This document shows positions 5,388-55,381 of a stretch of 64,000 nucleotides of DNA, piece by piece. Source of the DNA: Candidatus Collierbacteria bacterium UBA2277 (lineage in GTDB: Bacteria > Patescibacteriota > Microgenomatia > UBA1400 > MFAQ01); contig DDWV01000002.1 of the NCBI GenBank assembly GCA_002347045.1, forward strand, positions 8,551 through 72,550, given 5' to 3'. Each line of letters begins with the position of its first letter. Position 1 is the first letter of the stretch. The notes below the pieces were generated by a model. That model searched no databases, had not been told where the DNA came from, and worked only from the letters and a program-made list of their open reading frames with translations. Position numbers and translations under genes: made by a program.

Positions 5388-5491
5388 GCATCGTAATCAA
5401 GGTACTCCGAATTACGAGCGAATATAAGAGGAAGCGCACAATGACATATCAATAATGAATATTATTGATAGGAAGCGGAGCAAGCTCTTAT
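5388..5491. repeat. modular inverted-repeat element, copy D, in the mnmA 5' leader
   Basis: cgtaatcaaggtactccgaattacg hairpin, tataagaggaagcgca, tcaataatgaatattattga hairpin, ggaagcggagcaagctcttat. It lies directly downstream of -10 box TGGTAAAAT (5492-5500, minus). Confidence 0.65.
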
Positions 5492-7047
5492 TTTACCAAT
5501 CCCAAATTACCCTCACACAGATAAAATCCAGGTCTTTCCACCAAGCACTCCTCAAACTTTTCCATTGCCTTATCCTTATCCCCCGTCCACAAATAATACA
5601 TTCCCCAGTTATTCAAAAGCTCTGGATATTTGGGATATATTTCATCCGCCTTTTCCATTACTACCTTTCCACCCTCCAAATCATTACTCATAAGCAGTAT
5701 TGCTGCCTTATTACTCTGTGCCATCACACTATTTTGCACATAACCCGCATCATGAACAAAAAGCCTCTCCTGAGACAACCAATCAATATTCCTTACCATT
5801 GTTCTACTCAACAAAACCAATATCAATAGTAGTCCGAAGTACTTGTCCAATTTGGAAAAGATTGCGCAAAGCCAAAAAGCCTGGTCTTTTCGTACTCGAG
5901 AAGTTTTTGGCTGCAAGTCAGGACGGCTTTTGCGCAGGCAAAAGAGCGTCCGGTTTTTCAAATGGATATGTACTGCAGGACAAGAAATTGATAAGGCCAT
6001 CATCACCATCCCCAAACTCGGCCAAAACCAAAGCCTTTCACCAAATATCGTCCCAATCGGAAAAAGGAAATTTCCCGTGATCAGCAAAGGACCCCAGAAA
6101 AAGGCCTGTCCTAAAATCCACAATTTATTTCCACGAAGTTTAGTAAACAAGCTCCCAAGAGACATTGCCATCAACAAGATCCCCAACAGCACTTTCCAGT
6201 CAAACCAACCTGAAACCAACTTCAATTGATTAAAGGAATAGTCATAACTTAAATTAATAGGAAACACCACCTTTCCTATTCCAAAAGGAACCAAAGCGAA
6301 AGCATTTTGAACCCTCACCTCACTCGACACAAATCTCAAATGATTTTCCACCATAGTCGCATTGTTACTCAGGCCATTACCTCCCAACACCATCATCCGT
6401 AAAACCAAAAAGGTAACCGTTACAAACGCATAAAACATTGCTACTCCTACCTTTAGATCTTTCTTTCCCTTCCCAGTCAAAATCAAATACAACAAGACGG
6501 GCAGTCCTACAATGGCCGTTTCTTTCGACAACAAAGCCAAAAAGAAAGCAAAAGCACTCAACTCCCATTTTTTCTTATACTGCAAAATTATTGCCAATAA
6601 CACAAAACCCAAAGACAACATCTCCGCTCTCCCCACAATATTGTTCACCACCTCTGTATGAATCGGTAACACCAAAAACAACAAAGCAAAAAGGAAAGCC
6701 TCGTTTTTTGGAGATTTTTCATAATCCTCAAAAATCTTTTTAAACACTTCATACACCAAGAAGCAAACTCCAGAATAAAACAACACATTCACCAAACGAA
6801 ATCCCCAAGAATCGGTTCCCAAAACTAAGGCGTTAAGATACAAACTAAAACTAGTCAAAGGGCGATACACACCCGTCTCAGGCCCCTCTAAGTAGTAGTA
6901 TGGTCTCGTCCAAGTAGCCACCAAAGGACTTATTTTCCCCATCTCAGGATCTCCAGAGACTATTTTTAAATCATCTTGAATAAAACCGCCAAAAACACTC
7001 ACCCCATAAAGAACCAATGAAACCACAAAAATTATCCAACCCTTCAT
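5488..7047 (-). CDS. polytopic membrane protein with C-terminal TPR repeats (PMT/TMTC/ArnT-like glycosyltransferase candidate)
   Basis: About 10 TM segments, FIQDD motif near the N-terminus, TPR-like C-terminus, 519 aa. Confidence 0.5.
   Translation of the reverse strand: MKGWIIFVVSLVLYGVSVFGGFIQDDLKIVSGDPEMGKISPLVATWTRPYYYLEGPETGVYRPLTSFSLYLNALVLGTDSWGFRLVNVLFYSGVCFLVYEVFKKIFEDYEKSPKNEAFLFALLFLVLPIHTEVVNNIVGRAEMLSLGFVLLAIILQYKKKWELSAFAFFLALLSKETAIVGLPVLLYLILTGKGKKDLKVGVAMFYAFVTVTFLVLRMMVLGGNGLSNNATMVENHLRFVSSEVRVQNAFALVPFGIGKVVFPINLSYDYSFNQLKLVSGWFDWKVLLGILLMAMSLGSLFTKLRGNKLWILGQAFFWGPLLITGNFLFPIGTIFGERLWFWPSLGMVMMALSISCPAVHIHLKNRTLFCLRKSRPDLQPKTSRVRKDQAFWLCAIFSKLDKYFGLLLILVLLSRTMVRNIDWLSQERLFVHDAGYVQNSVMAQSNKAAILLMSNDLEGGKVVMEKADEIYPKYPELLNNWGMYYLWTGDKDKAMEKFEECLVERPGFYLCEGNLGLVK
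5492..5500 (-). promoter_or_regulatory. extended -10 TGGTAAAAT upstream of element D / mnmA
   Basis: Minus strand reads gattGGTAAAATaagagc. Same motif as at 822, 3270, 24660 and 31933. Confidence 0.4.
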
Positions 7048-24694: not shown

Positions 24695-26461
24695 CTATAA
24701 TGATTTATCCTTCACTTCCTTATTAATCTTAGACACAAAATCGGCAATCGTCATTACCCCCAAATCCTTTTGCCCTCGTTGGCGAACTGACACTTTTTTT
24801 GCTTCCGCCTCTTTCTCTCCAATAATCAGCATGTATGGAACTTTACAAACCTCCGCTTTATGAATCTTTTTTCCCAAAGAATCAGCGTCTTCGTTAAGTT
24901 CAACTCTAATACCTTTTTCAACCAGTTTTTCCATCACTGTCTCTGAATAATTATTCGTCTTCTCGGAAATTGGTAAAATTTCTACTTGCACGGGAGACAA
25001 CCAAAGTGGCAAATTACCAGCAGTGTGTTCTAATAGCAAACCCATAAAACGTTCCGGGGACCCCAAAATTGCCCTATGGATCATCACCGGTGTTTTTGCA
25101 GTGCCATCGCTATCAGTATACTCAAGCCCAAAACGTACCGGCATTATCATATCAAGCTGGATTGTAGAAATCTGCCATTCGCGACCCAAAGCGTCTACTG
25201 CAATAAAGTCCAATTTTGGTCCATAAATTGCCGCCTCTCCTTCCACTTTTTTATACTCCAATTTATTTTTAATCAATATTTCTTCCAAAAGTTTTTGTGA
25301 ACTTTCCCATACGTCAGGTGATCCCAAATACTTCTCTTTGTTCGTAGGATCCCACAAAGAAAGCCTAGTCCAGTACTTCATACCAAAAGGCTTCAGGGCT
25401 TTATCTATTATCTTTATGACATTCTCAAACTCCCCCTCAATTTGATCTTCCCTGCAAAAACTATGTCCATCATCCTGGCTAAAAGCTCTCAAACGAATCA
25501 ACCCAGACAACTCGCCTGGTTTTTCATCTCGATAAAGATTAGCAAAGTCAGACATACGAATAGGCAAGTCTTTATAACTTCTCTGTTTGCTGGCAAAAAT
25601 CTGCGTATGCATAGGGCAGTTCATTGGTTTCACAAAATACTCTTCTTTTGTGTAGTTACTAGCCACTCGCAACATAGAATCTTGATACTTTTCATAGTGA
25701 CCGGAAGTTTTAAAAAGATCTGCTTTTGTTATTTGTGGAGTCCACACTTCTTCGTAGCCAATACTTTTTTGCAATTCATTGGCCCACTCTTGCAACTGCC
25801 TTCTAACAAAGGCCCCTTTTTTGGTATACAAAGGCATCCCAGAACCCACCAAGTCTGAAAAAACGAACAAGTCCATTTCCTTCCCGATTTTACGGTGGTC
25901 TCTTTTTTTTGCCTCATCCAACTGCCATAGGTATTTGTCCAACTCTTCCTGTGTTTCAAAAGCTGTTCCATAAATTCTTGTCAACATCTTATTTTTTTCG
26001 TCTCCGTGCCAGTAAGCCCCAGCAATCGACAAAAGTTTAAAAGCTTTCAGCTCACCCGTCCTAGCCACATGAGGGCCAGAGCAAAGATCTACAAAAGACC
26101 CCACTCTATTTGGTTCACCAGTCCAATACACCGATATCTTTTCATTTTCCTCTTCAGCCTTTTCAATCCACTCCTGCTTGTAAGGATTATCTCTAAATAT
26201 TTTCTCTGCCAGCTCTGCCGTAACAATCATTTTTTCAAAAGGCAAGTTTTCACTAACGATCTTTTTCATCTCCTTTTCAATTTTTGGAAAATCTGACTCA
26301 GTTACCCTGAACCCGTTTGTTGTATCAAAATCAAAATAGAAGCCATTTTCTATCGAGGGCCCCATGGCTTTTATTATCTGACCAGGCCAAAGCCTCTCCA
26401 TTGCCTGAGTTAGTATATGTTCTGCACTATGTCTAAGTGCATGTAGTTTATTTTCTTCCAT
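24695..26461 (-). CDS. thrS: threonyl-tRNA synthetase (lacks N-terminal TGS domain)
   Basis: tRNA_SAD HxxxH region, class II core HRAILGSPERFMGLLLEH. 588 aa. Confidence 0.9.
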   Translation of the reverse strand: MEENKLHALRHSAEHILTQAMERLWPGQIIKAMGPSIENGFYFDFDTTNGFRVTESDFPKIEKEMKKIVSENLPFEKMIVTAELAEKIFRDNPYKQEWIEKAEEENEKISVYWTGEPNRVGSFVDLCSGPHVARTGELKAFKLLSIAGAYWHGDEKNKMLTRIYGTAFETQEELDKYLWQLDEAKKRDHRKIGKEMDLFVFSDLVGSGMPLYTKKGAFVRRQLQEWANELQKSIGYEEVWTPQITKADLFKTSGHYEKYQDSMLRVASNYTKEEYFVKPMNCPMHTQIFASKQRSYKDLPIRMSDFANLYRDEKPGELSGLIRLRAFSQDDGHSFCREDQIEGEFENVIKIIDKALKPFGMKYWTRLSLWDPTNKEKYLGSPDVWESSQKLLEEILIKNKLEYKKVEGEAAIYGPKLDFIAVDALGREWQISTIQLDMIMPVRFGLEYTDSDGTAKTPVMIHRAILGSPERFMGLLLEHTAGNLPLWLSPVQVEILPISEKTNNYSETVMEKLVEKGIRVELNEDADSLGKKIHKAEVCKVPYMLIIGEKEAEAKKVSVRQRGQKDLGVMTIADFVSKINKEVKDKSL

Positions 26462-26640
26462 GTTGGTTTGGGCCGTCAGTCTTTGTTCTTTATGCGACGC
26501 TACGCAGACTTGAATTGCTTGGTTCCACGAAGTGGAAATTCAAGTCGAGTATCGAGATAATTGTCGTTCGCAGGAAACGACAAATTATCGGTCGCCAATT
26601 AAGAATGAAGACAGAAGGCGATAAATAATATGTTAAAAAC

Positions 26641-26678
26641 AAAAAAACCACCCTTCTTGCAAGAACCCTTTCGGGTGG
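26641..26678 (-). terminator. rho-independent terminator (ccaccc...gggtgg enclosing palindrome ttcttgcaagaa) with U7 on minus
   Basis: Hairpin followed on the minus strand by ttttttt. Downstream of the 26814..27848 gene. Confidence 0.65.
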
Positions 26679-26813
26679 TTCCATCTTGCTTGCTAGGTAG
26701 CCTCTTAGTTCAAAGCGTTAGTGCTTTAGACTTGTTTTTCCCCGGTTGGTAGTCGGATCAACAAAACAATTCACTTGTAATCATGAGTATATCACTCTCC
26801 AAACAAAAAAATA

Positions 26814-28433: not shown

Positions 28434-29912
28434 TTATACCTTATTTTTTATTCTCATTGGTGGAAACAGAGTCCCCTCACGTGCAGAAACATCTTCCATA
28501 AACCAGAAAAGTCGCTCCGACATCCCAAATCCAGAGGTCGGTGCCATCCCATACTCCAGCATCTCCACAAAGTCCGTATCCATCATTTGAGCTTCATCAT
28601 CTCCTTTTTCTCTTGCTTTTTGCTGTTCTTCAAAACGATCTCTCTGATCAACTGGATCATTCAACTCTGAGTACCCATTACCTAGCTCAGATCCAGCAAT
28701 TATTATGTGGAACCTTTCAGTCAACTCTGGATCTTCAGGCTTACTCTTAGCTAAAGGCGACATAAATTTAGGTTCATTCAGAAGAAATGCTGGCCCAGCG
28801 ATTGTCTTACGTACTATCTTCCAACAATTATCTATCAGCCTAGCCCTACTTATCTCTCCAGTTAACTTCACTCCAGCATTTTTAATCGCTTCCAGCATTT
28901 CTTTGTCGGTCGATTTAACAATATCAACTCCAATTTTTTCTTTTATTACTTTTAGATAATCAATTTCCTCCCATTCATCATTCAAATCATACTCCATTCC
29001 GCGACTCACAAATTTTGTTTTTCCATACACTTTTTTTGCAACATGGCGATATAACTCACGAGTCAACTGCATATTATCTCGATAGTCAGCAAAAGCCCAG
29101 TACCACTCTAAGGAGTAATACTCTGGAAGATGTTCATCATCCATTCCTTCGTTTCGGAAATTTGGTGCCAATGTATATATCTTCTCAAAACCAGCTCCTA
29201 TTAGCCTCTTTTGATAAAGCTCTGTCGAAATACGAAGATAAAAATCTTGATCAATTGAGTTCATGTGTGTCACAAAAGGTCTAGCATCAGCTCCTCCGGT
29301 TACAGACTCCAAAACTGGAGTCTCAACTTCCATAAAACCTTTATCAGCCATAAAAGATCTACACTCTGCCCAAAATTTTGCTTTTCTTTCAAACCTCTTA
29401 ATTTTTTCTTGATCCATCAATAAATCCAAATACCTCTTTCGAAAGGCATCATCTGGATCTACAATTCCCGCCCATTTTTCAGGTAATGGTAGTCTCGACT
29501 TTGTTAGTAATTTTATTTCTTTGACCTGAATCGAGACCTCACCTGTTCTTGTTTTTACCACCTCTCCCGTAGCTTGAATAATGTCACCAATATCCAGAAA
29601 ATCCAACTCATCAAAGCCAAGAGTTTGCTTTGTCTTATCAAACTTCGACATCATGTCAGAACGAATAAAAAGTTGAATTCTCCCGCTTTGGTCTTGAATT
29701 TGACCAAAAATCAGCTTACCGTGTTCTCGCCAGGCCATAACTCTCCCTGCTAATGTCAAAGTCTTACCTTCATATTTCTCAAAGTTTTCTACAACTTCAT
29801 TATTTGTTGTTTCTTTGATTGACCTTGCAGGATATAAATCAATACCCTTTTTTTTCAAGGAATCCACCTTCTTTTCTCGCTCTTTAAGTATTTCGTCTAG
29901 TCTGCTTGCCAT
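28434..29912 (-). CDS. lysS: lysyl-tRNA synthetase, class II
   Basis: N-terminal OB fold, FRNEGMDDEHLPEYYSLEWY. 492 aa. Confidence 0.9.
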   Translation of the reverse strand: MASRLDEILKEREKKVDSLKKKGIDLYPARSIKETTNNEVVENFEKYEGKTLTLAGRVMAWREHGKLIFGQIQDQSGRIQLFIRSDMMSKFDKTKQTLGFDELDFLDIGDIIQATGEVVKTRTGEVSIQVKEIKLLTKSRLPLPEKWAGIVDPDDAFRKRYLDLLMDQEKIKRFERKAKFWAECRSFMADKGFMEVETPVLESVTGGADARPFVTHMNSIDQDFYLRISTELYQKRLIGAGFEKIYTLAPNFRNEGMDDEHLPEYYSLEWYWAFADYRDNMQLTRELYRHVAKKVYGKTKFVSRGMEYDLNDEWEEIDYLKVIKEKIGVDIVKSTDKEMLEAIKNAGVKLTGEISRARLIDNCWKIVRKTIAGPAFLLNEPKFMSPLAKSKPEDPELTERFHIIIAGSELGNGYSELNDPVDQRDRFEEQQKAREKGDDEAQMMDTDFVEMLEYGMAPTSGFGMSERLFWFMEDVSAREGTLFPPMRIKNKV

Positions 29913-29929
29913 GTGTCTATTATATCTGA

Positions 29930-31672
29930 CTACATCTTCTCCACTGTCTCAATTCCCAAAAGCCATAGTCCATTTGATAGTATCTGAGAAACAGCCTTAG
30001 TCAAAGCCAATCTAAACACTTCCTTGTCCGTTCCAACTATCTTACAGTTAGCATAAAAAAGATTAAATCTTGATGAAAGCTCGATCAGATAAGAACAAAT
30101 CAAATTAGGTGACAAATTTTTTCCTGACACCTCTACTATTTCAGGAAAACGATACATCCATCTAGTAAGATTCTTTTCTTCGCTCGATACCTTTGTATCT
30201 GTCTTAACTAAAAACTCATATTTCCCAGACTTCTCTATTACACTCATAGCTCTCGCATAGGCATACTGCAAATACGGACCACTGTCCCCCTCAAAAGAAA
30301 GGGATGTCTCAAAGTCAAACAAAATATCCTTTCCGGGACTTTGTTTTAACATTGAGTATTTTATCGCCCCAACAGCCACCTTAGTTACTACCCTTTCAAC
30401 GTCTTTAATATCTTTACCTCTTCCTGTTTCAGCCATCTTTTTATCAATCTCTTCACTCACACTTTCCATCAAACTCTCTCCCGTAACAACCTGACCCGTC
30501 CTTGAAGACATTTTGCCATTTTTTAGCCTCAACATCCCATGACCCACATGAACCGTTTTTATAGCCAAATCTGGATAAATCAAGCTAGCCGCCTTCAAAA
30601 GCACTTTAAAATACTCGTTTATTTCATTTGCCGTCACAACGACAGATAAATCATAAGCAAATCTTTCAAACTTAGTATTCATCAGAGCAAGATCTTTTGC
30701 TTCGTATGTAGGCAGTCCCAACTTATTTCTGAAAACTCTTGTGTGAAGACCGTATCTTTCTCCCTCAAAAACCACAGCGCCCTTACTCTTCACAAACACT
30801 CCTTTTTTCAAAAACTCGTTCACCAAGTCGAGACTCAAATCACTCATCTCACTTTCATAAAAGCTCTCATCAAACTTCGTTCCAAGTTTTAGATATATTT
30901 TATCAAAGTACTCCATACTCCACTCTCTACCGAGATCGTAAACTATGTTTACCTTTTCATCCTCTCTTTTATAAATAATCTTATTCAGCAAATCAATTTC
31001 TTCCTTCACTTTCTCCATCTCCTCATATTCTTTTGCTCCACGAACATAAGCTTCTCCCATAAATCCTACTCGACTTTCGAGATCCATTTTCTCAAGTTGA
31101 TCAATATCAATATTCTTCTCAGCAAACAGCTCTCTTAATCCATAGATACACTTTGCCACATGCAAACCCACATCCCCCTGATAATTTGCCCTTCGAATAT
31201 CAGCACCCTGAAACTCCATCAATCTCGACAGAGACTCACCAATAGCATTACTCATTAGGTGACCTATGTGAAATAATTTAAAAGGATTTGGATCCGTATA
31301 CTCCACCATTACTTTCTTATCCGCCAAAGCTTTATTACTGCCAAAATATTCCTTTTCAGCCAAGACTCTTTTGACTTCACTAAGAAGAAACTCATCTTTC
31401 AAATAAAAATTTACAAATCCAGGACCAGCAGGCTCAATATCTTTTACATACTCAGCCAAAGTTTTGTTCGCTTGTAGCTTACCAATAAGATCAACAGCCA
31501 GCTCCCTTGGATTCCTTTTTAGCTCACTAGCCAATACTAAGGCAATATTTGTAGAATAGTCACCCAATTTTTCATCTTGAGGATGTTCCACAGCAAACTC
31601 TTTTCCCAATGATAGTTCGGCTACTGCATCATTTATTTTTTCTTTAATATTCATTGTATTGTTTATAATCAA
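29930..31672 (-). CDS. argS: arginyl-tRNA synthetase. Probable true start is ATG at 31654 (MNIKEKINDAV).
   Basis: HIGH-like PNPFKLFHIGHLMS, KMSSRTG, DALR anticodon-binding domain. 580 aa. The track start is TTG. Confidence 0.9.
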   Translation of the reverse strand: MIINNTMNIKEKINDAVAELSLGKEFAVEHPQDEKLGDYSTNIALVLASELKRNPRELAVDLIGKLQANKTLAEYVKDIEPAGPGFVNFYLKDEFLLSEVKRVLAEKEYFGSNKALADKKVMVEYTDPNPFKLFHIGHLMSNAIGESLSRLMEFQGADIRRANYQGDVGLHVAKCIYGLRELFAEKNIDIDQLEKMDLESRVGFMGEAYVRGAKEYEEMEKVKEEIDLLNKIIYKREDEKVNIVYDLGREWSMEYFDKIYLKLGTKFDESFYESEMSDLSLDLVNEFLKKGVFVKSKGAVVFEGERYGLHTRVFRNKLGLPTYEAKDLALMNTKFERFAYDLSVVVTANEINEYFKVLLKAASLIYPDLAIKTVHVGHGMLRLKNGKMSSRTGQVVTGESLMESVSEEIDKKMAETGRGKDIKDVERVVTKVAVGAIKYSMLKQSPGKDILFDFETSLSFEGDSGPYLQYAYARAMSVIEKSGKYEFLVKTDTKVSSEEKNLTRWMYRFPEIVEVSGKNLSPNLICSYLIELSSRFNLFYANCKIVGTDKEVFRLALTKAVSQILSNGLWLLGIETVEKM

Positions 31673-31673
31673 G

Positions 31674-31768
31674 CATAATAACGAAGTTATAAGTGATTAT
31701 AAGAGGAAGCGCAGTCTGGATATTTCAAGAATAATATATTCTTGAAAAGAAGACGAGCAAGCTCTTAT
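31674..31768. repeat. modular inverted-repeat element, copy E, in the argS 5' leader
   Basis: cataataacgaagttataagtgattata, tataagaggaagcgcagtctggata, ttcaagaataatatattcttgaa hairpin, aagaagacgagcaagctcttat. Confidence 0.65.
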
Positions 31769-31774
31769 ATAAAT

Positions 31775-31930
31775 AAAACCCCTCACCAAAATCAAGATAG
31801 TTAATCTTAACTTAAGTCAGGGGTTCTTGAGAGAACGGTACCACCCTTCTATACTCTTTGTGCTTTGACGGGCTACCCCGGTGAACTTCTTCACTAGCTC
31901 CGAAGGTCGCGACCCTTCATCAACACCTTT
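31775..31930 (-). promoter_or_regulatory. candidate T-box riboswitch leader for the argS-lysS operon
   Basis: Minus strand carries AGAAGGGTGGTACCGTTCTC (31829-31848), matching the T-box core AGGGUGGNACCG. The leader begins GGUGUUGAUGAAGGG (GA/K-turn-like Stem I start). It is GC-rich relative to its surroundings. Confidence 0.45.
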
Positions 31931-31932
31931 AT

Positions 31933-31941
31933 TATTTTACC
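31933..31941 (-). promoter_or_regulatory. extended -10 GGGTAAAAT just upstream of the candidate T-box leader
   Basis: Minus strand reads aagtaGGGTAAAATaataaaGGTGTTGATGA. Confidence 0.4.
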
Positions 31942-31958
31942 CTACTTAGTGAAAAAAA

Positions 31959-32948
31959 CTAATAACTACTCGTTCTTCCAGTTAGATATTTCTCCACATC
32001 CAATGCAGCCTGACACCCCATACCCGCTGCCGTCACTGCTTGTCGATATCGATAATCCACCACATCTCCACAACCAAAAACACCTTCCACAGATGTCATC
32101 GTGGGATACCCCTCAAGCCAAACATCTTTTTCACTTACACGCCATTTAGTGTCAGACATCAAACTAGTCATTGTTGTAGTTAAATATCCCTTTTTGTCCA
32201 ACTCCAACAAACCTTCAAACAGCTTTGTAGTTGGTACATGTCCAATAGCTACAAACAAACCATCCGCTGAAAGCTCCTCAACCTTACCAGTTTTTATATT
32301 TTTTACTTTAATTGTTTGAAGTACTGCCTCTCCACTCACACCAACAATCTCACTATCCCATATCACTTTTATTTTTGAGTTAGCCAGCACCCTTTCTTGC
32401 ATGATTTTGCTTGCTCGAAATTCATCCCTTCTATGTATTATTGCCACCTCGCTAGCAAACTTTGATAACGCAATCGCATCTTCAATAGCCGCATCTCCTC
32501 CACCAACCACATAAGTCTTTTTATTTTTGTAAAAAGCCGCATCACACACAGCACAAGTACTAACTCCACGCCCAATATATTCCTCCTCTCCCACCCCAAT
32601 CATCTTAGACGAAGCTCCTGTAGATATCACTACAGCCTTTGCTCGATACTCTTCTTTTCCAACCCATACTTTTTTAGTCGTAGAAGACAACTCCACTTTT
32701 GTAACCTCAGAATACACCACTTCGGATCCAAATCTTTTTGCTTGTTTCTCCATCTCCATCATCAAATCAGGTCCCATTATTCCCTTAGAAAAGCCAGGAT
32801 AGTTCTCAACCTCAGTAGTATTCATCAACTGACCACCAGGATGATTTCCAGACAGCACCAACACAGACAAGGTTGCTCTAGAAAGATAGATCGCCGCCGT
32901 ATAACCACTTGGTCCACCACCCACAACGATCACATCCCACATTTTCAT
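31959..32948 (-). CDS. trxB: thioredoxin-disulfide reductase
   Basis: VVGGGPSGYTAAIY, redox-active CAVCD. 329 aa. Confidence 0.9.
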   Translation of the reverse strand: MKMWDVIVVGGGPSGYTAAIYLSRATLSVLVLSGNHPGGQLMNTTEVENYPGFSKGIMGPDLMMEMEKQAKRFGSEVVYSEVTKVELSSTTKKVWVGKEEYRAKAVVISTGASSKMIGVGEEEYIGRGVSTCAVCDAAFYKNKKTYVVGGGDAAIEDAIALSKFASEVAIIHRRDEFRASKIMQERVLANSKIKVIWDSEIVGVSGEAVLQTIKVKNIKTGKVEELSADGLFVAIGHVPTTKLFEGLLELDKKGYLTTTMTSLMSDTKWRVSEKDVWLEGYPTMTSVEGVFGCGDVVDYRYRQAVTAAGMGCQAALDVEKYLTGRTSSY

Positions 32949-32949
32949 A

Positions 32950-33273
32950 TTACTTTAAAACTTTCTTAATCATCTCTTCATACACCTCTTTACCTCCAAA
33001 ACCTACCTGACGAGCCACTTCTTTTCCCTCATTAAACATTACTACCGTTGGAATACTCATCACTCCATATTTTCCTGCCACTCCAGAGTTTGCATCAACA
33101 TCAACCTTTCCTACAATTATCTTTCCATCAAAAGTCTTTGCCATTTCTTCGATAACGGGAGCAACCATTCTACAAGGACCACACCAATCAGCGAAAAAAT
33201 CAACCAAAACTGGTTTGTCTGCTTTTAAAACTACCTCTTCAAAATTACCATCTGTAAATTGTGCTATTTCCAT
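32950..33273 (-). CDS. trxA: thioredoxin
   Basis: WCGPC active site. 107 aa. Confidence 0.9.
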   Translation of the reverse strand: MEIAQFTDGNFEEVVLKADKPVLVDFFADWCGPCRMVAPVIEEMAKTFDGKIIVGKVDVDANSGVAGKYGVMSIPTVVMFNEGKEVARQVGFGGKEVYEEMIKKVLK

Positions 33274-55302: not shown

Positions 55303-55307
55303 ACTTG

Positions 55308-55381
55308 TGGGCCGACTAGGATTCGAACCTAGGACATCGAAGGTATAAGCTTCGCGCTCTAACCAGCTGAGCTATCGGCCC
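55308..55381 (-). tRNA. tRNA-Ile with anticodon TAT (UAU)
   Basis: Reverse complement GGGCCGA-TA-GCTC-AGCTGGTTA-GAGC-G-CGAAG-CTTATAC-CTTCG-ATGTC-CTAGG-TTCGAAT-CCTAG-TCGGCCC-A. Perfect cloverleaf, U33, A37. Confidence 0.85.

Follow-up and report, generated by a model that had tools for sequence, protein, structure and literature searches.

T-box riboswitches serve as a model system for how an RNA can recognize which tRNA it meets and whether that tRNA is charged. For those that act on transcription, a distal platform at the end of Stem I is described as essential, and Stem III as indispensable (PMC7583486). T-boxes with an ultrashort Stem I are reported to regulate only ileS and to act on translation (bioRxiv 10.1101/2023.02.28.530422). 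The TBDB model for short Stem I elements has been used only on Actinobacteria and on sequences already found by the class I (RF00230) model, and our literature search for T-boxes together with CPR (Candidate Phyla Radiation), Patescibacteria, Saccharibacteria or Parcubacteria yielded no paper. Here we examine a leader located ahead of argS and lysS on the minus strand of a 64,000-nucleotide stretch of DNA (hereafter the window) from Candidatus Collierbacteria bacterium UBA2277, contig DDWV01000002.1. The host is a member of the Patescibacteria (CPR) with a G+C content of 39%, and the closest relatives of its ArgS protein come exclusively from metagenome-assembled genomes of Patescibacteria. 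A model working from the letters alone (the sequence-only reading) had put the leader forward as a candidate T-box. We estimate a probability of about 85% that it is a genuine, unusually small, arginine-specific T-box riboswitch of the transcription attenuation type.

The proposal is carried by the sequence and structural elements of the leader, by their covariation, by conservation in orthologs, and by the association of similar leaders with arginine genes. The elements of the expression platform are as follows.

31819..31847, minus strand: antiterminator with the T-box sequence, -6.9 kcal/mol
31847-31844 with 31822-31819, minus strand: helix A1, AGGG / CCCU, 4 bp
31843-31837, minus strand: 7-nt bulge UGGUACC
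31836-31832 with 31827-31823, minus strand: helix A2, GUUCU / AGAAC, 5 bp, with loop CUCA
31769..31827, minus strand: intrinsic terminator, an interrupted hairpin (31827-31775, -27.5 kcal/mol) and then a U tract
31778-31769, minus strand: U tract UUUUAUUUAU, directly after the terminator hairpin

The segment AGGGUGGUACCGUU fits the general T-box consensus AGGGUGGNACCGCG at 12 of 14 positions. Its core, AGGGUGGUACCG, which the sequence-only reading had given as a 12/12 match to the T-box core, is unique in the window, where the 12-mer AGGGTGGNACCG occurs once, compared to 0/100 shuffles. The three minus-strand words quoted in that reading were also located, with GGGTAAAAT at 31941-31933, GGUGUUGAUGAAGGG at 31927-31913 and AGAAGGGUGGUACCGUUCUC at 31850-31831. 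The 5′ strand of the terminator consists of the 3′ strands of A2 and A1, so the two structures are mutually exclusive. The terminator is stronger than the antiterminator by approximately 20 kcal/mol, and both this energy asymmetry and the U run are present in all eight members of a diverse set of related leaders, which also have the A1/bulge/A2 topology in common. It had been supposed that repeat element E, described below, occupies the place of the terminator. Instead, an intact hairpin with its U tract precedes the repeat and overlaps the 3′ strands of the antiterminator.

Upstream of the antiterminator, the leader contains a compact set of helices and linkers.

31895..31927, minus strand: Stem I, ultrashort (from sequence and covariation)
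31927-31925 with 31898-31896, minus strand: basal helix, GGU / GCU
31924-31922, and 31921-31920 opposite 31900-31899, minus strand: K-turn-like loop, with bulge GUU and GA opposite GA
31919-31914 with 31906-31901, minus strand: 6-bp helix of Stem I, UGAAGG / CCUUCG
31913-31907, minus strand: 7-nt terminal loop GUCGCGA
31909..31911, minus strand: predicted Arg specifier, CGC, the third to fifth nucleotides of the loop, with the purines G and A next
31881..31894, minus strand: Stem II, reduced to the hairpin GUGAA-GAAG-UUCAC (5 bp), the loop of which is purine only; an S-turn internal loop is absent
31860..31880, minus strand: Stem IIA/B pseudoknot with the F-box-like CCCGUCAAAGC
31880-31878 with 31871-31869, minus strand: Stem IIA, CGG / CCG
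31876-31872 with 31863-31860, minus strand: Stem IIB, loop GU(A)GC with GCAC
31848..31859, minus strand: purine linker AAAGAG-UAUAG-A (AAAGAG at 31859-31854), leading into helix A1

Measured from the Stem I base through the last nucleotide of the antiterminator, the leader spans only ~109 nt. The base of Stem I, 5′-GGU-GUU-GA-UGAAGG ... CCUUCG-GA-GCU-3′, matches the K-turn consensus, which agrees at the level of sequence with the K-turn-like base noted in the sequence-only reading; the motif is kept in four of five orthologs and is not present in all distant members. In the diverse set, the Stem I helix is 100% paired and shows compensatory changes at all five counted pairs, and among orthologs its closing pair changes from G-C to A-U. 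A classical Stem I bearing an internal specifier loop had been expected; what is found is of the ultrashort type, and its 6 bp and 7-nt loop leave no space for a distal platform.

The terminal loop offers a consistent placement for the specifier, which the sequence-only reading had been unable to position with confidence. Twelve leaders, located ahead of argS, argG/argH or an operon that includes argS, have an unchanged GUCGCGA. At the corresponding loop positions, AUC is found in ileS leaders and ACC in thrS leaders. Because the ileS loop CAAUCAA and the thrS loop C(U/A)ACCAA present their codons at the same position, the register is predicted to be N-N-codon-R-A, and the arginine specifier to be CGC at 31911-31909. 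Alternative specifiers, AGA or AAG within the GAAG loop of the second hairpin, were considered and set aside, given that this loop is CAAAAU in distant members and that GUCGCGA is invariant.

Comparative data also define the middle of the leader. Compensatory changes occur at all five pairs of Stem II in the diverse set and at three of five among close orthologs; the orthologs have GAAG or GAAA as its loop, and most of the distant members have CAAAAU. Stem IIB covaries at 4/4 pairs and is 90.6% paired across the eight diverse members, although it had been left out of the covariance model described below, and it is unchanged among the five close orthologs. The equivalent segment of an ileS leader (L048) aligns with the IIA/F-box columns of RF00230. 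Between the purines AAGAG, which resemble the RRRxG element, and the AA before A1 there are only five nucleotides (UAUAG), and hence there is no Stem III helix; the flanking motif 5′-RRRxG ... AA-3′ is as defined in PMC7583486. The linker, which has no helix, is near-invariant in five orthologs, and it is helix-free as well in the ileS leaders L048, L070 and L072. Two other readings were rejected because Stem I, Stem II and IIA/B prove comparatively to be separate helices, namely an independent small RNA, either SRP RNA or one of C/D-box type as UGAUGA...CUGA might suggest, and the tRNA-like four-way junction of the minimum free energy fold.

Leaders of this design are not confined to the window. 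A search for bulged antiterminators in 160 Patescibacteria loci surrounding argS, 1.46 Mb in total, found the same design before ileS (five loci), thrS, argH-argG and argG-argH, and in argS-containing operons. The word GTCGCGA occurs 107 times in these loci; in 13 cases it forms the loop of a hairpin with 4 bp or more, and for 11 of these UGGNAC[CA] follows 60-175 nt on. Every arginine-linked leader has a hairpin with the 7-nt loop GUCGCGA, borne on stems that vary widely (GAAGG/CCUUC, CCAGA/UCUGG, CUGGA/UCCAG, UCGAC/GUCGG, UCGGA/UCCGA, CCGGA/UCCGG and GCAGA/UCUGU), and the genes after GUCGCGA leaders are argS, argH-argG, argG-argH or argS-containing operons. The design with this loop is seen at L040:410-620 and L089:840-1070 (also in L143, L154 and L139) before argH-argG, argG-argH or operons of unidentified genes.

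A covariance model, R1, was built from the 5′ domains of seven Patescibacteria arginine leaders, with the window excluded. Each of the seven combines the GUCGCGA loop with a T-box bulge, and for at least six the downstream gene is argS or argG/argH. R1 matches window positions 31853-31929 on the minus strand from end to end with 33.3 bits (E 6.5e-10), the next best match in the window reaching 9.8 bits with filters off. In the alignment of the eight diverse members, pairing holds in 90.2% of cells, compared to 18-40% in slid controls, and both partners vary at 14 of 18 pairs, among them the four of Stem IIB. R1 also matches the ileS leaders weakly. For one of these, L048, the RF00230 score is 47.3 bits, compared to a gathering score of 93; the alignment covers Stem II, the IIA/F-box segment, the T-box and the purine linker before it, and treats Stem III as a deletion. 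Together, the R1 and L048 evidence indicates that the Patescibacteria leaders are a divergent T-box branch lying below the Rfam threshold.

Simpler searches are less informative. Searching the loci of nine relatives with Rfam at gathering score returned tRNAs alone, and TGGNACC was found within 600 nt upstream of argS in none of 80 genome loci. The latter search is misleading because some leaders are located further upstream (L014) or before argG/argH.

Five ileS leaders with the loop CAAUCAA or a variant and with a terminator are located at L041:6134-6330, L048:5647-5860, L070:5846-6020, L072:5972-6150 and L074:2250-2420. Each has an ultrashort Stem I and falls under the Rfam gathering threshold, and three have no Stem III. 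Two further T-box-like structures were encountered among the scanned loci: an antiterminator with UGGC ahead of an unidentified 285-aa gene (L029:1930-2200), and a longer leader with a UGGUACC bulge and a terminator (L101:2830-3363), located ~150 nt upstream of a tRNA-Arg(UCU) gene, which would be an unusual T-box target.

The window itself contains a second short leader, ahead of thrS.

26640-26770, minus strand: T-box-like leader before thrS
26750-26748, minus strand: predicted specifier ACC (Thr), in the loop of a K-turn-like Stem I, UUGUUUU-GUU-GA-UCCG ... CGGG-GA-AAAACAA
Between AAGAG and AA of this leader, minus strand: Stem III, 3 bp
26683-26677, minus strand: bulge of the antiterminator GCAAGA-[UGGAACC]-ACCC-GAAA-GGGU-UCUUGC
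In the same leader, minus strand: terminator ACCACCC/GGGUGGU, then U7

Orthologs of this leader are found in L001, L163 and L083. Rfam gave nothing relevant for it at gathering score or at E<=10. The sequence-only reading had taken a GGGUGG word near thrS for part of an ordinary terminator and hence as a warning of chance matches; the word is in fact the 3′ strand of the terminator belonging to this second leader.

Four orthologous argS leaders (L162, L161, L164 and L166) were recovered by protein search and contig look-ups, with ArgS proteins 69-75% identical to that of the window and R1 scores of 18.9-35.9 bits. The five leaders are 87% identical, and the leader is therefore more conserved than the ArgS protein encoded downstream. 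Invariant blocks are GUCGCGA, UUGAUGAAG, CGGGGUAGCCCG, AGCACAAAGAGU, GGGUGGUACCGU, CCCCUGAC and GUGAGGGGUU. Among these orthologs 96.2% of cells are paired, compared to 31-49% when slid, with compensatory changes in the closing pair of Stem I, in three pairs of Stem II and in the terminator, which is itself 94% paired.

Beyond the terminator, the window carries a repeat that these orthologs lack.

31698..31773, minus strand: repeat element E, a hairpin-forming repeat between the terminator and the argS start, outside the riboswitch

Repeat E is absent from 4/4 orthologous leaders, whose ATG codons are ~8-50 nt past the terminator stem, and therefore it is best viewed as a later, lineage-specific insertion downstream of the switch rather than an interruption of it. 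Five copies in the same orientation are present in the window (31698-31773, 1331-1404, 636-693, 494-551 and 5459-5496). The element is ~75-110 nt in length, has the consensus ATAAGAGCTTGCTCG..TTCTTTTCAATAAT..ATTATTGAAATATC..CTGCGCTTCCTCTTATA...CTTCGTTATTATG, and folds as a long hairpin (z = -5). Spacers following the 16S rRNA gene and surrounding tRNA-Ile hold copies, as do the positions immediately ahead of two protein genes. No copies were found in the loci of relatives, where a 12-mer in L108 was the lone match. Its stretch UGCUCG...UUUUCAA may bear a faint resemblance to the boxA antitermination element.

The comparison with described T-boxes can now be drawn. Judged by its predicted elements, the argS leader falls within the core definition of a T-box, having the T-box sequence with its bulge, a competing terminator, a specifier that matches the downstream gene, a K-turn and the IIA/B pseudoknot. 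It shares with classical RF00230 leaders such as Bacillus tyrS and glyQS the T-box (12/14), the A1/bulge/A2 arrangement, a terminator into which the antiterminator's 3′ strands are drawn, the Stem I K-turn, the F-box and IIA/B pseudoknot, purines before A1, and an aminoacyl-tRNA synthetase gene downstream. Unlike those leaders, it is only ~109 nt in length and has no long Stem I, S-turn specifier internal loop, or platform of AG bulge and distal loop, nor does it have a Stem III helix, the G-U pair at the base of A2 or an RF00230 score. Lacking that score, the long Stem I and platform, Stem III and the A2 G-U pair, it does not belong to class I.

The ultrashort ileS T-boxes of Actinobacteria (Mycobacterium, Nocardia) are similar in their short Stem I, whose terminal loop carries the specifier and then a purine, in having no double-T-loop platform, in decoding through the Stem II region and the IIA/B pseudoknot, and in the UGGN bulge. 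However, those RNAs are reported to serve ileS only and to act by sequestering a ribosome-binding site, whereas the argS leader is predicted to be specific for arginine and has an intrinsic terminator at its end. It differs further in that Stem II is reduced to a hairpin of 5 bp that has no S-turn, that Stem III is missing, and that its host belongs to the Patescibacteria, in which sister leaders are predicted to sense threonine and isoleucine. Nor does it belong to class II as defined, since it would respond to Arg where that class senses Ile, and it carries a terminator in place of a sequestrator.

Patescibacteria leaders of ileS (L041, L048, L070, L072 and L074) and thrS (window 26770-26640, L001, L163 and L083) share the overall plan and the register N-N-codon-R-A, have a U tract after the terminator, and score below threshold or not at all with Rfam. 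The ileS leaders differ from the argS leader in their AUC specifier and larger Stem II. The thrS leaders differ in their ACC specifier, in a 3-bp Stem III within RRRxG/AA, in having no F-box or IIA/B recognizable by eye, and in a terminator that pairs the ACC of the bulge and the 5′ strand of A2. The predicted combination of ultrashort Stem I, transcription terminator, Arg or Thr specificity and no Stem III is new.

The genes and promoter-like sequence around the leader are as follows.

32950-33273, minus strand: trxA, first in gene order
31959-32948, minus strand: trxB, followed by a 304-nt gap before argS
31933..31938, minus strand: -10-like hexamer TAAAAT, putatively from the leader's own promoter
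29930-31654, minus strand: argS, with its ATG at 31654 (Pfam tRNA-synt_1d/DALR_1/Arg_tRNA_synt_N)
28434-29912, minus strand: lysS, 17 nt from argS (Pfam tRNA-synt_2)
28434..31654, minus strand: argS and lysS together, the genes predicted to be regulated
24695-26461, minus strand: thrS, further downstream of lysS

The leader has a G+C content of 46-53%, compared to 26-33% in the remainder of the trxB-argS intergenic region, which bears out an earlier remark that the region is GC-rich relative to its flanks. In an alignment of five orthologous leaders, TAAAAT or TATAAT is kept 10-11 nt upstream in all five, and a consensus -35 element sought upstream of the leader was not found.

From these elements we infer that the leader binds tRNA, distinguishes charged from uncharged forms and thereby affects transcription. 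Transcription would begin at the leader's own promoter near 31927. The anticodon of tRNA-Arg (ICG/ACG or GCG) would pair with CGC in the 7-nt terminal loop of the short, K-turn-borne Stem I, and the purine-looped Stem II hairpin together with the IIA/B pseudoknot would form the remainder of the decoding pocket. If the tRNA is uncharged, its 3′ NCCA would pair with UGGU in the bulge, stabilizing the weak antiterminator and permitting read-through into argS-lysS. If it is charged, the stronger terminator would form and transcription would end near 31769. The bulge sequence UGGU predicts A73 in the cognate tRNA-Arg, and tRNA-Arg genes of Patescibacteria have either A73 or G73. At locus L040, the bulge is UGGC and the tRNA-Arg gene at the same locus has G73, a match that lends indirect support to complementarity between UGGN and the discriminator.

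Several observations, together with the published requirements for a distal platform and Stem III cited at the outset, weigh against this interpretation. RF00230 gave nothing for the argS leader at gathering score, and nothing at E<=10 over 31600-32050. The sequence-only reading had named the joint absence of an RF00230 match and of any antiterminator/terminator topology as grounds for abandoning the T-box proposal; the match is indeed absent, but the topology is present. The long class I Stem I, with its specifier internal loop and platform of interdigitated T-loops, is absent. So is the Stem II S-turn, which in class II carries a string of five purines; there being no internal loop, only the all-purine tetraloop could stack purines. 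The Stem III helix is missing, with its flanking purines kept. The first pair of A2 is G31836-C31823 rather than the conserved G-U, as it likewise is in L143, L154, L089 and the orthologs. A tRNA-Arg gene was sought in the window and in the orthologous loci, and none was found there. Four close relatives (L001, L163, L081 and L165) have no leader, their trxB-argS gaps being 10-33 nt, which makes the element dispensable in that clade. Conservation before argS, proposed earlier as a check, is seen in four orthologs and fails in these four, and the leader has been lost or gained repeatedly among close relatives. Finally, the 76-nt repeat E places argS ~115 nt from the terminator, and a promoter within the repeat would bypass the switch. 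The leaderless loci of L001 (the closest relative in GTDB) and L081 had suggested an insertion artefact, an idea dropped when the four orthologous leaders were then recovered.

These last points could also describe a decoupled or relic T-box, with argS transcribed from within or after repeat E and the leader doing no more than terminating trxA-trxB or leader transcripts. The insertion between terminator and argS is specific to the window, close relatives live without any leader, and in one assembly of this organism a break falls within E, 73 nt ahead of argS. Against this, all functional elements are intact and near-identical to those of orthologs lacking E, a search of the minus strand from 31400 to 32300 found no sigma-70-like promoter, and possible -10 positions within E are not conserved across its copies. 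We regard such decoupling as unlikely, though it is the most probable of the rivals. A switch that acts on translation or RNA stability rather than termination is more improbable still. Its appeal is that ultrashort Stem I elements are known in the literature solely from translational T-boxes of the actinobacterial ileS kind, and that the G-rich sequence GUGAGGGG, the 3′ strand of the terminator, comes 10-24 nt before the ATG in L166 and L164, where it might serve as a Shine-Dalgarno sequence. In the window, however, the ATG is ~115 nt past the hairpin, which is therefore unable to sequester the ribosome-binding site, and a strong hairpin with an immediate U run is present in all family members.

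A chance resemblance, a concern that the sequence-only reading itself had voiced, would make the leader an ordinary trxB terminator and structured spacer containing a T-box-like word, or an unrelated small RNA gene. No Rfam match exists, and the looser 9-mer GGTGGNACC, allowing up to one mismatch, is not enriched in the window relative to shuffles. Yet the 12-mer was seen in none of 100 shuffles, a model built independently of the window matches at an E of about 1e-9, and conservation and covariation extend through orthologs and distant members linked to arginine genes. The R1 match and the two covariation analyses effectively refute chance resemblance, to which we give almost no weight, and an arginine T-box that attenuates transcription is the reading we retain.

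Other features of these loci were observed in passing. The gene directly upstream of argS in some relatives, behind the T-box and with stop and start codons overlapping (L161:7249-9725), encodes a B3_4 domain protein (PF03483), and in P0038 and P0046 the B3_4 domain is fused to ArgS in proteins of 851-861 aa. Just downstream of the 16S rRNA gene, a copy of repeat E is flanked by a 112-nt direct repeat (1181-1292 and 1401-1512, 94% identical), each copy of which holds a terminator-like hairpin, AAAAACCCACA...TGTGGGTTTTT. The window also encodes, besides tRNA-Ile(GAU) at 734-808, a tRNA-Ile with anticodon UAU (tat) at 55307-55381 on the minus strand, which represents an uncommon bacterial way of reading AUA.

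On balance, we lean toward the broader view that Patescibacteria hold unannotated, functional miniature T-boxes that act on transcription in response to Arg, Thr and Ile, that need for decoding only a specifier in the terminal loop, Stem II as a hairpin and the IIA/B pseudoknot, and that in some cases, the argS leader among them, sense aminoacylation without Stem III or the A2 G-U pair. This family conflicts with three statements in the literature, namely the need for the platform, the indispensability of Stem III (both PMC7583486), and the restriction of ultrashort elements to ileS and translation (bioRxiv 10.1101/2023.02.28.530422). If the prediction is true, the argS leader would be the smallest natural T-box, at ~109 nt to the end of the antiterminator, and neither a platform docking the tRNA elbow nor Stem III would be universally needed for co-transcriptional tRNA sensing. 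A predicted natural tRNA sensor of ~110 nt could be useful for structural and engineering work. Annotation in the manner of Rfam and TBDB would be overlooking T-boxes in CPR genomes, and these bacteria, despite their reduced genomes, appear to keep feedback from tRNA charging on aminoacyl-tRNA synthetase and arginine-biosynthesis genes.

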